From contig CAVVXH010000006.1 of assembly GCA_963752155.1 (NCBI GenBank), positions 224,001 to 288,000 on the forward strand: a DNA stretch of 64,000 nt, in the 5' to 3' direction. Positions 59,694 through 64,000 of the stretch are shown here, one piece after another (within the stretch, counting starts at the first letter, position 1; every line of letters begins with the position of its first letter). The position numbers were made by a program, and so were the translations under genes. The notes beneath the pieces were generated by a model that was not told where the DNA came from, searched no databases, and worked only from the letters and a program-made list of their open reading frames with translations. The DNA comes from an uncultured Parachlamydiaceae bacterium. Lineage in GTDB: Bacteria > Chlamydiota > Chlamydiia > Chlamydiales > Parachlamydiaceae.

Positions 59694-62600
59694 CTACTGA
59701 ATCATGCACCATTGCTCTTCTCTCTCTATAATAGCAATTTGTTCTTGGACTAAACGCATATCTGAATCGCGTCCAGGATCATTTATTTGTTTCCAAATCT
59801 CTAAAGCTTCATTGTAATATGCCTTTGCTTCTTTGGATTTACCCTCTTTATATTTGATTCTCCCTATATGATAGGTCGTTATGGCATATCCATCAGAATT
59901 CTTATTTCCATGCATTTGGAAATAAAGTTCTCTCGCTTTTTTAAAAGATAATTCCGCCTCTGTATATTTGCCTCCGTCAAATAACATCCTTCCATTTTCG
60001 TAGGCATCTAGAGTATCAATTTGTACTTGGACCAAACGCACATCTGAATCGCGTACCATGGGATTATCTATTTGTATTTGTTTCCAAATTTGTAAAGCTT
60101 CTTTGTAATATGCCTTTGCTTTTTTGAGTTTACCCTCTTTATATTTGGCTCTCCCTATATCATAGGTTGTTTCGGCATATTGATCAGAATTCTTTATTTG
60201 GAGATAAAGTTCTCTCGCTTTTTCGAAAAATAATGTCGCTTCTCTACATCTACCCTCTAGAAGTAAATTTTCTCCATTTTGGTGTGCTTCGTGGGCATCT
60301 AGAGTATCAATTTGTACTTGGACCACACGCACAGTTGAATCGCGTCTGGGATCATTTATTTGTTTCCAAATTTGTAAAGCTTCTTTGTAATATGCCTTTG
60401 CTTCTTTGAGTTTACCCTCTTTATGTTTGGCTCTCCCTATATCATAGGTCGTTTCGGCATATTGATCAGAATTCTTATTTCCAAGTATTTGGAGATAAAG
60501 TTTTCTCGCTTTTTCGAAAAATAATGTCGCTTCTCTACATCTACCCTCTAGAAGTAAATTTTCTCCATTTTGGTATGCTTCGTAGGCATCTAGGATATCA
60601 ATTTCTTCTTGGATCAAACGCACAGTTGAATCGCGTCTGGGATCATTTATTTGTTTCCAAATTTGTAAAACTTCTTTGTAATATGCCTTTGCTTCTTTGG
60701 TTTTACCTTCGTAACGTTTGACTATCCCTATATTGTAGATCATTAGGGCATATTGATCAGAATTCTTACTTCCATCTATATGCAGATAAAGTTGTCTCGC
60801 TTTTTCAAAAGATAATCCAGCTTCTATATATTTATATTCTTCAAATAATGTCTTTCCATTTTGCTCATAAGCAGCAATTAAAGGATTAAGAATTCTATCT
60901 AGTTGATACTGGGGAGGAGAACCTTTAAACACAACTAACATATCGAGAATTTTGTTTATTATACTTTTTTCTCTAGGAATATTATTTTTGTACATATACA
61001 TAACATGCGGTATCAAAGCGTCAATTTTTTTGATGGCGTTTTTCCCCTTTTCTGGCTGTTCGATTTCCAAATCTTTTACATATTCATCAATAAATCTAAG
61101 AGTTTTTTCAATGATAAGCTGCCCTTCATCTTTGTCGATGATTGATTGCAAGCTTATTTGATGAAGTCTATGTATAGAAAAGGTGTGATGTTCACGATTG
61201 CTACGAATAATGTCATAATTATTTAGGGTACTAGAAATGGCAATTTCCAGTCGCCTATGCCCATCATTGCTATCGTCCCAAAATTTTTCTTCCCAGATAC
61301 GCTCAACAAAAGTATCTCTTATTTTTTGTCTAACCCAGATTTGCAACCATTCTTCTGGTATGGGATTTGGAGCTAAATAAGAGATCATCTGCAACCACTC
61401 ATATCCCTCTGGAGAATCTTTTTTTATCCTATTCCAGGTAATGCGCCAAACATTTTGTAATGTATGATTATAGCGATCTTCACCAGATGCTGGGGTATTT
61501 TTGGGATCGTTATATAGCTTCCGGTACTCGGCAATTGTTATATTTGTGTTAGAGATATATCGAGCCACTTGATTGAGCACAAATGGAAAGTAATCTAAAT
61601 CTTTTGCCAATTGCTCCATTTCATTGCTTGCTTTCTCTTTTGTGATTTGTGAGAGAAGATTGATCGCCTCTTCAAGAGTGAAGGGTTCGACATGAATATG
61701 TTCCTCCCTTTTATTTCTTACGTTATATTGCCTTGATGTGATCAAAACACAGCCCCCTTCTTGGGGTAGATCTGAATCCATGATCTTTTCTTCAGCATTG
61801 TCAAAAATCAAAAGCCAAGGTTTATCGAATTGGTTACCTTGCAAAAAACCATGAGTTGTTCTTTTTATCCGATCCAGAGACCAATCTCTTTCTAGAGGTA
61901 TATATAATTCCTTAGCTAGACGTCTATAGCCATCTTCAAGCAACTCTGGGCTGTCAGCGTGAAATTGCCAAACAATTGAAAAATCATCGATATTCGAATT
62001 TGCGAACTTGATGGCAAGTTCGCTTTTTCCCATACCTCCTACCCCCCACAGAACCCGAATTTTTAAAGGAAAACGAGATCCCGCATTTTGTGAATGAACA
62101 AAATCTCTCTTTAGGAGATCAAGGATTGTCTCCCTTCCTGTAAAACTACTCAGGGGATTATTTAGCCAAATACGTTCAAGTTTTATAGGGTCAATATTTT
62201 TAAGCCCCTCACGATGGCTTAGTGGGGTTGAAAAAAATTATCAACAGATTGCTCACCAGATTTGATTATTTCTGTTTGCTTTTCTTGGCTAATGCCAAAA
62301 TCTAGCAAGCCCACTCCACTTATTGGAATGCTGATCATACGATCTTGATTATACAAGTGTTCATTTCTAAAAATCTCCTCTGCATGGTAGTAGGTAGAGA
62401 TGAGTTTTTTGGTTAAACTCAGAGCATTCATAGTCTGTGGGACTCCTTCTTTTTCCACCTTCAATTTCAGGCTTATGCCGAGAGTTTTCCTATTTGCTTT
62501 TCCCCCCCATTCTCGCTTATCCTGCTGGTACTTATTGTCATCAAAGGCATCGATAGCAAAGTTTTTTATCAGGCCACCGTCAACATAACTACCAAGATCT

Positions 62601-64000
62601 GGGCGAGGATATAGTTTTCCCTTAATGTCTTTAAATCGAAGTACGTATGGTTTAAAGACTCCAGGAATAAGAAGAGGAAGATCGTATGGCATCTGAGATA
62701 ACAAGATCTTTCCAGAGAGAATCCTCATAACTAAAACGCTCAAGATCCGAGCCATCGATATTGTCTAGGCGAATGGCATAGACATAGAGATCTTTGAATT
62801 TTTGTGTACCATGCTTTATAACAAGATCATGCAATTCTCTAAACGTACAATGAGAAGTTTTAGTTTTGTCCTTTATCATCTCTTCAATCCATGCTCTTAA
62901 CTTTTCTCCTTCGCATAGACCCGTCACTCCAGTCAAAGTTCGGTAGAATTCTTTAGCTCTTTGCTTAGGATTGAAGAGAGTTTGCCAACCTTCCCAGTAA
63001 TTTTCGAATAGCTTTTCCAATAGTTCGCGTGGGCCTGCCTTTGCGCCAGTAAGTAAATCTTTCTCTAAATCCCCTGCTGGATCGAGAAACTCAGTAAAAT
63101 CTTTTTTAAGCAATGCACTCAGTTCTTCTGTTTTATAACCAACAGCAACAAATGCAGCTGTCATGGATCCAGCAGAGGTCCCTGCTACACGAACCACATC
63201 TTTTAAAGCTTGATTCTTTTCCATTGCTTGTAAAGCACCCACATAGGCAATTCCTTTAGGACCACCTCCTTCAAAAACAAGATTTTCCGGAGGAGAATGA
63301 ACAAAATCTGGGGGGCGTGTACTATCAATCATATTTCCTTGTGCAAGGTTAGAAAGAACCGTTTTAGTTCTTTTGCATTTGTCTGTCCCTTTAGGAACAA
63401 TCTGGATAGGAGCTTGATTGCCAATACCAGCCGCCAACGTCACGATATTAGCGTTTAGATGCTTTAAATGCCTGATGGAATCAGGCTGACAACCCAAAGC
63501 TGCCCAATGTACAGCCGTACGATCTTTCAAATCTCTTGCATTAACATCTGCTTTACTCTGAACAACCAGATGACGAATAGATTTCAGATCACCTAAATAA
63601 GCCGCAAGTTGAAGAGGTTTTATTTCATTTTTACCACCATTTTTTTCCAAAAGTTCTCCCGTTTCTTTAGAGTATTTCCTAGTAAGATGTTCTAACATTA
63701 GAAACTGGCTCGAGTCAATAGCAAGGTGGAGAAGAGTGCCAATTCCAGGGATAATCTCTTTTAAATCCACAACTTCCAGAAAATCATTTTTTATTAGTTT
63801 TTCTAAGCATTCAATCTGTCCATGAAAAACCGCGAGTGCTGCGGGAGAAAAAGATCCTTCTGAAGAGGAATCAGTTTTTTTGTTTAGAGAAGCTCCTTTC
63901 TTCGCAAGACTCTCAACAATGTGCGAATGACCCTGTTCGATTGCCAGATGAAGGGCTGTTTTACCTTGAAAATTGACTCCGTCAATTTCAAAAACTTCAG
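59694..64000 (-). CDS. Ankyrin-patatin-NB-ARC(STAND)-TPR protein with CaaX end; 5' end beyond the window; two 1-nt frameshifts (about 62670 and 62232)
   Basis: GKTALHLA/RTAVHWAA ankyrins; FEGGGPKG, GTSAG, DGG patatin motifs; FTGRE, GVGGMGKS, WLLIFDNAE, LITSR, IHRL NB-ARC motifs; TPR repeats; ends WCMIQ. Confidence 0.85.
59730..60880 (-). repeat. About 291-bp (97 aa) TPR-pair repeat, 4 copies
   Basis: KNSDQYA...EAKAYYKEALQIWKQINDP.RDS recurs four times at high DNA identity. Confidence 0.88.

Follow-up and report, generated by a model that had tools for sequence, protein, structure and literature searches.

An ankyrin-patatin-NB-ARC-TPR gene of an environmental chlamydia with a recurrent CaaX box: a candidate switch-gated effector

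At one end of a 64,000-nucleotide stretch of DNA from an uncultured Parachlamydiaceae bacterium (the window; positions 224001-288000 of contig C6 of source genome G000), ankyrin, patatin, NB-ARC and TPR sequences lie in a row on the minus strand, distributed over three reading frames and followed by the residues CMIQ, which raises the question of whether they form one protein and, if so, in which cell that protein would act. We found that the three stop-to-stop frames, which share short overlaps, make up one gene of about 2,000 codons (read through, with one undefined residue at each break). The firm part of our results is its domain architecture, which relatives keep within one polypeptide, together with the NB-ARC fold of its modelled ATPase and the recurrence of a CaaX box at one fixed position in the family. 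Beyond these, we consider it rather probable that the gene encodes one modular, probably translocated effector of an environmental, amoeba-type chlamydia, namely a switch-gated phospholipase anchored to a host membrane.

One gene across three reading frames

The 5' part of the gene lies outside the window: the gene continues for 588 codons past the window end, into a conserved N-terminal module, and about 500 codons, this module among them, precede the ankyrin repeats. These are followed by a patatin phospholipase, an NB-ARC-type STAND ATPase, four TPR super-repeats and the terminal CMIQ (Table 1). Pfam detected Ank_2 (3.8e-17) and Patatin (PF01734; 1e-18, 68.7 bits for a cut-off of 27.7) in frame 1, the latter over profile positions 1-162 of 191, and TPR_12 (5.4e-32) in frame 3; the short frame 2 gave no Pfam match. 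The motifs that we take to define a patatin (a Gly-rich oxyanion motif, the G-x-S-x-G nucleophile and the D-G-G/A aspartate) are all present. Between the Ser and Asp motifs the frame changes, so that the patatin catalytic domain is not one uninterrupted chain in the assembly; the second change falls inside a run of seven T residues (T7). Both breaks, at about 62669 and in the T7 run, coincide with the shifts near 62670 and 62232 by which the original prediction had joined three fragments into one frame of more than 1400 amino acids (aa). The patatin, Walker A/B and TPR motifs and the terminal CMIQ that it had named are likewise all present, and the joined frame is borne out by paralogues and homologues that are continuous across the breaks.

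In frame 3, the first ATG, GTG or TTG codon is the Met within the P-loop GVGGMGKS, so an ATPase with an intact P-loop cannot be made from it as a separate protein. Eight homologue representatives from the search described below (P0014, P0015, P0036, P0061, P0062, P0067, P0097 and P0116) begin at the query position of this Met, as does the window's own called open reading frame (ORF); public assemblies may therefore often have a break upstream, or a contig end, at this junction. A promoter and terminator scan of 59300-59800 gave nothing above shuffled sequences.

Four other loci in the source genome match frame 1. Three paralogues align continuously across the first break (C2:159636-163172, C6:290961-294065, which lies immediately upstream, and C15:70850-73357), the first two of them across the second break as well. 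In order to survey relatives more widely, the NB-ARC part was searched against a library of 1.84 billion cluster representatives that carries no taxonomy, which yielded 14089 matches at E<=1e-3 and 140 at E<=1e-30. We examined the best 150 representatives, one of which was the window's own called ORF, leaving 149; in 39 of these, both patatin halves lie N-terminal of the NB-ARC part in one chain. A word-indexed search revealed the same architecture in two long relatives, a 1700-aa protein ending in CKIL from an Anoxychlamydiales metagenome-assembled genome (MAG) and a 1528-aa protein that ends in a hydrophobic tail. Thirteen patatin-bearing homologue ORFs come from bacterial genomes of the window's order. 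Homologues are thus commonly single fused genes, whereas homologues that are always separate genes would, by the original prediction's own measure, have spoken against a fusion.

Within a phylum sample of 301 genomes, 27 (counting G000) gave a match at E<=1e-10, all of them in the window's own order, where they span eight families, often with several copies. At the same threshold, no match was obtained in one family represented by 30 genomes, nor in a genome of the same genus. The nearest named relatives are chlamydial MAG proteins and, beyond Chlamydiae, proteins of the actinobacterial FxSxx-COOH system. Searching other genome contigs for related loci returned one weak actinobacterial locus only, and a phmmer search with a paralogue was dominated by ankyrin proteins.

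For the ATPase, the Pfam NB-ARC match stays below its cut-off (see below). However, the NCBIfam model FxSxx_TPR (NF040586) covers residues 30-411 of the 847-aa frame 3 piece (2.2e-60), several homologues carry a precomputed PF00931 (NB-ARC) match, and G68, G70, K71 and D146 are invariant or nearly so among 40 aligned sequences. An AlphaFold model of the 847-aa piece, built from this 40-sequence alignment, reached a predicted local distance difference test (pLDDT) score of 84.7. Foldseek matched it to the STAND-TPR structure 6mfv (7.6e-13), to Apaf-1 (1z6t, 1e-9), to CED-4, and to the NB-ARC domain of NRC1 (8bv0, 8e-9; template modelling score 0.69, normalised by target length). In the model, the ATPase is thus NB-ARC-like, with a P-loop, a helical domain and a winged-helix fold. 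Pfam patatin, NCBIfam FxSxx_TPR and Foldseek therefore support both a patatin and an NB-ARC domain, each of which the original prediction had read from motifs. With the whole 847-aa alignment as a profile against solved structures, matches were dominated by TPR proteins. The TPR array itself consists of 3.9 copies of a 291-nucleotide unit with 83% nucleotide matches (Tandem Repeats Finder), and its four 97-aa units are 60-90% identical in protein.

C-terminal tails, N-terminal module and proposed action

Cys stands at position -4 in 32 of the 149 representatives, compared to one to six representatives at each other of the last 12 positions. The second "a" is aliphatic in 28 of these 32, and in several the residues just before the box include a second Cys or form a basic stretch. 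CaaX ends are commoner in patatin-bearing (16/39) than in NB-ARC-only representatives (16/110). In bacterial genomes of the same order, where counts from related genomes are descriptive, 9 of 46 complete homologue ORFs end in CaaX (CLVM, CNIL, CTIL twice, CLLM twice, CYLM, CTLQ and CVIQ) against Cys at -4 in 6 of the 264 remaining ORFs at these loci, and none of the 46 has a Cys at -1, -2, -3 or -5. This count, which covered every matched place outside G000 (55 in number) except G119:C76, comprised 55 distinct ORFs with an NB-ARC match, 46 of which were at least 400 aa long with a complete C-terminus. The background in the source genome is 45 of 2289 ORFs with Cys at -4. The recurrence of Cys at -4 above background, and at -4 only, marks the predicted CaaX box as a trait of the family, at odds with a chance ending that relatives would not share. 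Such a family trait argues for a role in the host cytosol over one in anti-phage defence. CMIQ fits the pattern of a Cys at -4, mostly aliphatic residues at the two positions after it and a permissive residue at the end; a terminal Q in a CaaX box directs farnesylation. Since the 1528-aa relative carries a hydrophobic C-terminal tail in place of CaaX, its sequence suggests that C-terminal membrane targeting is what is selected in the family.

Other endings were observed in passing. In genome G147, three patatin-NB-ARC homologue loci (L040, L041 and L006, of which L006 and L040 overlap) end in a conserved CPKRWTFW tail instead of CaaX, and two representatives end similarly; this tail may be another C-terminal targeting signal. 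CaaX-like ends also occur in other proteins of the source genome: a 954-aa Sel1-repeat protein in the window (16741-19602, minus strand) ends in CVIS, a PPR-repeat protein in CIIL, an ankyrin-like protein in CTVQ, and five ORFs lacking a Pfam match in CVIQ (twice), CILQ, CSIQ and CLIL. Housekeeping proteins such as ScpA have a Cys at -4 as well, presumably by chance.

At the other end of the protein, residues ~80-450, encoded outside the window, share 39-58% identity with the N-terminal parts of 17 proteins (P0244-P0260) whose remaining parts are unrelated, comprising TPR, phage tail collar, FG-GAP or TraB/PrgY/GumN sequences or nothing recognisable. They were found in a Chlamydiae MAG, in a further MAG labelled Pseudomonadota and in other sources, and at least four of them end in hydrophobic segments resembling tail anchors. 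Few genomes of the phylum sample have the module (3 of 300, G000 included), and it matched nothing in Pfam, NCBIfam or PADLOC. Its model was of moderate confidence (pLDDT 67) and gave no Foldseek match at E<=0.001; the best VIA-align Z score, 7.1, does not rise above the noise of helical models. For the N-terminal 502 aa, the language-model neighbours were type III effector clusters, with scores of 0.75-0.80 that are likewise within the noise range. The sharing of N-termini would be compatible with a delivery or localisation module common to a polymorphic effector family. We had also considered an Inc-like membrane hairpin and dropped it, as no 19-residue Kyte-Doolittle window exceeded 1.4 downstream of the first Met.

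Combining these parts, we propose a protein made up, in order, of a variable leader, the N-terminal module, ankyrin repeats, patatin, the NB-ARC STAND ATPase, TPR super-repeats that appear recently duplicated, and the CaaX box. Such a protein would be exported into the host cytosol, where host farnesyltransferase would lipidate the terminal Cys and thereby tether it to a membrane, either of the host or of the inclusion. The TPR region would keep the ATPase off until a ligand is bound, and nucleotide-dependent oligomerisation would then gather the patatin domains on the membrane and lead to phospholipid cleavage.

Table 1 Coordinates of the gene, its parts and the genes next to it. Positions are those of the window unless preceded by L002.
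Feature	Position	Strand	Remarks
Frame 1	62652 to window end	(-)	448 codons inside window; whole frame 1036 codons, first Met = codon 27
Frame 2	62219..62764	(-)	181 codons/aa
Frame 3	59694..62237	(-)	847 aa, C-terminal CMIQ
Ankyrin repeats	63393..64000	(-)	Pfam Ank_2/Ank/Ank_4; continue past window end
Patatin-like phospholipase, first part (frame 1)	62667..63281	(-)	Pfam PF01734; GGGPKG and GTSAG
Patatin oxyanion motif GGGPKG	63252-63269	(-)	Frame 1
Patatin nucleophile motif GTSAG	63168-63182	(-)	Frame 1
First change of frame	62652..62672	(-)	Frame 1 stop 62652-62654; homology switches to frame 2 at ~62669
Patatin-like phospholipase, second part (frame 2)	62222..62665	(-)	Alignment to paralogues and homologues; DGG
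Patatin catalytic Asp motif DGG	62573-62581	(-)	Frame 2
T7 run with second change of frame	62231..62237	(-)	Frame 2 stop 62219-62221; frame 3 = -1 relative to frame 2
NB-ARC-type STAND ATPase module	61005..62150	(-)	Walker A, Walker B, then helical and winged-helix subdomains; NCBIfam, Foldseek
Walker A GVGGMGKS	62022-62045	(-)	Frame 3
Walker B LLIFDN	61797-61814	(-)	Frame 3
TPR sensor region	59725..60863	(-)	3.9 copies of 291-nucleotide (97-aa) super-repeat; Tandem Repeats Finder, Pfam TPR_12
CaaX box CMIQ with stop codon	59694..59708	(-)	CMIQ itself 59697-59708
Conserved N-terminal module, ~350 aa	L002 5384-6586	(-)	Outside window; shared N-termini
346-aa protein, ubiquitin-like	L002 6949-7989	(-)	Rad60-SLD 2.3e-5; upstream, just past window end
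1035-aa ankyrin-patatin paralogue	L002 7959-11066	(-)	Patatin uninterrupted, P-loop degenerate, without TPR; just past window end

Interrupted frames and site of action

A search of sequencing runs for the locus returned three with small shares (0.14, 0.07 and 0.07) but no reads of the source genome, and no RNA run was among those listed. The public contigs compared from these runs are short, none spans the gene, and most bins are uncovered. A 151-nucleotide contig from run X2 matches 62646-62797 with no substitution and a one-letter length difference at 62669, and in this form the patatin domain is open in one frame at the first break. Outside the repeat array, five of eight listed differences to contigs from runs X1 and X3 are synonymous, which gives a weak hint of constraint. 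At the second break, long relatives read a conserved FFS, the same reading that is obtained by a handover from frame 2 to frame 3 within the T run. Measured against 400 kilobases (kb) of a complete relative, the source assembly has 10 of 103 conserved genes split, compared to 2 of 119 in the reverse direction, and completeness of the source genome is estimated at 80%, where relatives reach 90-99%. The type III export gate SctV is among the split genes, and one TLC nucleotide transporter is also broken. Both breaks are therefore in line with the general state of the assembly, whether through error or decay, and findings in the source genome that depend on frameshifts need read support. SctV itself is broken by one TGA and a frame change; C10:589611-591652 and C9:16805-18270 are examples of interrupted genes.

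A second copy of the gene, on C2, is itself interrupted. It lies in two same-strand pieces (C2:64889-65764 and C2:159636-164995) that are 93,871 bp apart; its break falls exactly where the C6 gene reads on, and its frame also changes near C2:163124-163172. No direct repeat of more than 10 nucleotides was detected at the edges of the insertion. The ORFs that lie just within its right edge look plasmid- or phage-like by eye, and the insertion may represent an integrated mobile element.

The copy described here could likewise be a decaying pseudogene of a family that works elsewhere, with both frame changes real and no full-length protein made; we regard this as possible, if on the unlikely side. 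It would explain two frame changes within about 6 kb, a T7 state common to a contig from another run, the C2 paralogue that is interrupted by 93.9 kb and also changes frame, and the lack of a match to the query in the same-genus genome G133. However, decay at this rate would have to be accepted as real for 10 of 103 conserved genes, SctV included, which is hard to credit for an obligate intracellular bacterium. The X2 contig, open at the first break and free of substitutions over 151 nucleotides, also argues against decay, as do the synonymous share of five in eight among the differences to the X1 and X3 contigs outside the array and the intact state of all catalytic and ATPase motifs.

With the gene taken as one that encodes a full-length effector, its surroundings bear on where that effector would act. 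Six TLC nucleotide-transporter matches, two of them from one broken copy, were found in the source genome, and the gene for the type III export gate SctV is present, interrupted in the assembly. We count both in favour of a translocated effector, as they fit an intracellular lifestyle with type III secretion. The neighbourhood is eukaryote-like: the ankyrin-patatin paralogue is joined there by one protein with a ubiquitin-like match and one with an OTU-like match. By eye, the C-terminal part of the 1035-aa paralogue resembles the C-terminus of the 346-aa ubiquitin-like protein. The downstream neighbour (window 56090-59377, minus strand) is a 1095-aa protein with a GxxGxGKST P-loop in its middle and, at its C-terminus, a weak match to an OTU-like cysteine protease (Pfam 1.6e-4, below cut-off; GDGNCLIHAI recognised by eye). 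It gave no NCBIfam match and may be a deubiquitinase-type effector.

An NLR-like protein might instead act inside the bacterium, in defence or abortive infection, sensing a phage or plasmid protein and destroying the cell's own membrane. Free-living bacteria use STAND ATPases that carry TPR sensors and lipase effectors in this manner, the nearest named relatives beyond Chlamydiae are actinobacterial, and the N-terminal part of the patatin weakly matches defence phospholipase models. Against this stand the Cys at -4 with aliphatic neighbours, which recurs in the family and which, to our knowledge, has no known use inside bacteria, and the ankyrin repeats together with the eukaryote-like neighbourhood. 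In addition, some relatives have a hydrophobic C-terminal tail instead of CaaX, suggesting selected membrane targeting, and PADLOC returned no STAND or Avs model at E<=0.01, only generic TPR and ankyrin models and partial phospholipase-effector models. Taken together, we judge internal defence to be distinctly improbable.

Finally, programmed -1 ribosomal frameshifting or transcriptional slippage at the T7 run, which would give a short ankyrin-patatin protein and the full-length, switch-controlled form in a fixed ratio, is not supported and highly improbable: in frame 2 the run reads U UUU UUU, a -1 slip would give the FFS conserved in relatives and a second data set has the same run length, but the downstream 76 nucleotides fold no better than shuffles (z +0.57; 137 of 200 shuffles at least as good), T7 runs are commonplace in the window (149 against an expected 119), the junction lies in a single frame in relatives, and the assembly contains many other breaks.

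The reading as a host-directed, switch-gated phospholipase has its own difficulties, and the following points weigh against it. The Pfam NB-ARC match of frame 3 (PF00931; 3.7e-4, 20.3 bits) stays below the cut-off of 23.5. A 253-nucleotide contig from run X1 (3 substitutions) keeps the same T7 run, with only ~21 nucleotides on one side, and the interrupted, frame-changed C2 copy indicates that the family may be decaying in the source genome. Most homologues have no CaaX box (117 of 149 representatives and 37 of 46 genomic ORFs), and some of the CaaX-bearing representatives could be eukaryotic, given the library's lack of taxonomy. Related genomes are not independent, so that the CaaX contrasts are not tests and the enrichment overstates the case. 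Lastly, the nearest named relatives outside Chlamydiae, the actinobacterial FxSxx-COOH proteins, act inside bacteria.

Meaning and comparison with known systems

In animals, plants, fungi and bacteria alike, STAND/NLR switches are known to serve as sensors for the cell that makes them. A STAND switch, a patatin effector and a CaaX effector are each of a known kind, and here they are combined in one protein. A large family in obligate intracellular bacteria thereby carries a signal that only a eukaryotic host could use, which suggests that ligand-gated machines of the NLR type are delivered as effectors in their own right. If true, this would add a new, regulated class of effector in the form of a lipase that acts only upon a cue; the CaaX box or hydrophobic C-terminal tail would provide a simple sequence marker for picking testable members, and there would be a possible link to symbiont-mediated protection of amoebae. 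Going further, chlamydiae might inject a whole repertoire of NLR-type sensors that host enzymes lipid-anchor to host membranes, as immune or cell-death receptors supplied by the symbiont. Their TPR region, quick to duplicate, would recognise some state of the host or a rival invader (another bacterium or a giant virus), upon which the switch would release a lipase that destroys membranes. We consider this extension improbable.

A search of the available literature returned no description of chlamydial NB-ARC proteins and, among the papers listed, none linking CaaX with environmental chlamydiae, and a paper on chlamydial gene-family expansion (PMC4209131) has no occurrence of "patatin", "NACHT" or "prenyl". 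Several known systems share parts of the design. NB-ARC and NACHT proteins, in which STAND domains are found with ankyrin or TPR repeats, occur in the eukaryotic association module of Wolbachia phage WO and among rickettsial OTU proteins, where an action on host cell-death pathways has been proposed (PMC5062602, PMC6133264). They differ in belonging to another phylum and in having genes that look like arthropod transfers, and the available text of these papers mentions neither a patatin effector nor CaaX.

Fungal patatin-NB-ARC-TPR NLRs show the same order of lipase effector, NB-ARC and TPR, according to the available text of Dyrka et al. 2014 (PMC4986451), which also describes internally conserved repeats, comparable to the 60-90% identity of the TPR units here. 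Their NB-ARC-TPR part is homologous: a Trichophaea hybrida protein aligns with the query at E 9e-23 and with the chlamydial protein P0001 at E 2e-18 (21% identity over 536 columns). The patatin domains, in contrast, do not align by BLASTP, so the likeness covers NB-ARC-TPR only. Unlike the fungal proteins, the chlamydial ones add ankyrin repeats, the N-terminal module and often CaaX, and, being encoded by an intracellular bacterium, they are not allorecognition receptors of the cell in which they would act. The NLR-like, host-deployed phospholipase of the original prediction holds up in its architecture, in the CaaX box as a family feature and in the missing PADLOC STAND match; by BLASTP, its likeness to fungal NLRs does not extend to the patatin, and secretion, prenylation, gating and phospholipase activity stay at the level of inference.

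The actinobacterial FxSxx-COOH TPR proteins provide the best curated model for the ATPase module (NF040586), with many named matches at about 22-31% identity; the match scores 205 bits, below the equivalog cut-off of 300 bits. In contrast to the chlamydial gene product, these proteins lack patatin, ankyrin repeats and CaaX and belong to a different genomic system of free-living bacteria.

For the C-terminus, the closest parallels are Legionella and Salmonella effectors (AnkB, LseA, PelC/PelE and GtgE) that end in CaaX and, in the available text of PMC7542358, PMC13081727 and PMC13423502, are lipidated by host enzymes and thereby anchored to host membranes. None of these is a STAND ATPase, and in the chlamydial gene product prenylation is predicted only. 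For the effector domain, the NCBIfam model of Legionella VpdC gives 2.4e-18 with the adjacent paralogue and 8.1e-8 with the gene described here, over the Gly-rich and Ser motifs, and its scores are far below the equivalog cut-off of 1000 bits. ExoU, VipD and the rickettsial Pat proteins are injected patatin-like phospholipases, and the known enzymes are switched on by host cofactors. The chlamydial protein would likewise place a patatin core in a secreted effector of an intracellular bacterium, and differs by its built-in STAND switch.

Anti-phage Avs and bNACHT proteins, finally, have the same order of effector, STAND ATPase and repeat sensor, with presumed ligand-induced oligomerisation. Unlike in those systems, the CaaX box, the ankyrin repeats and the genomic context of the chlamydial gene point to the host cytosol.

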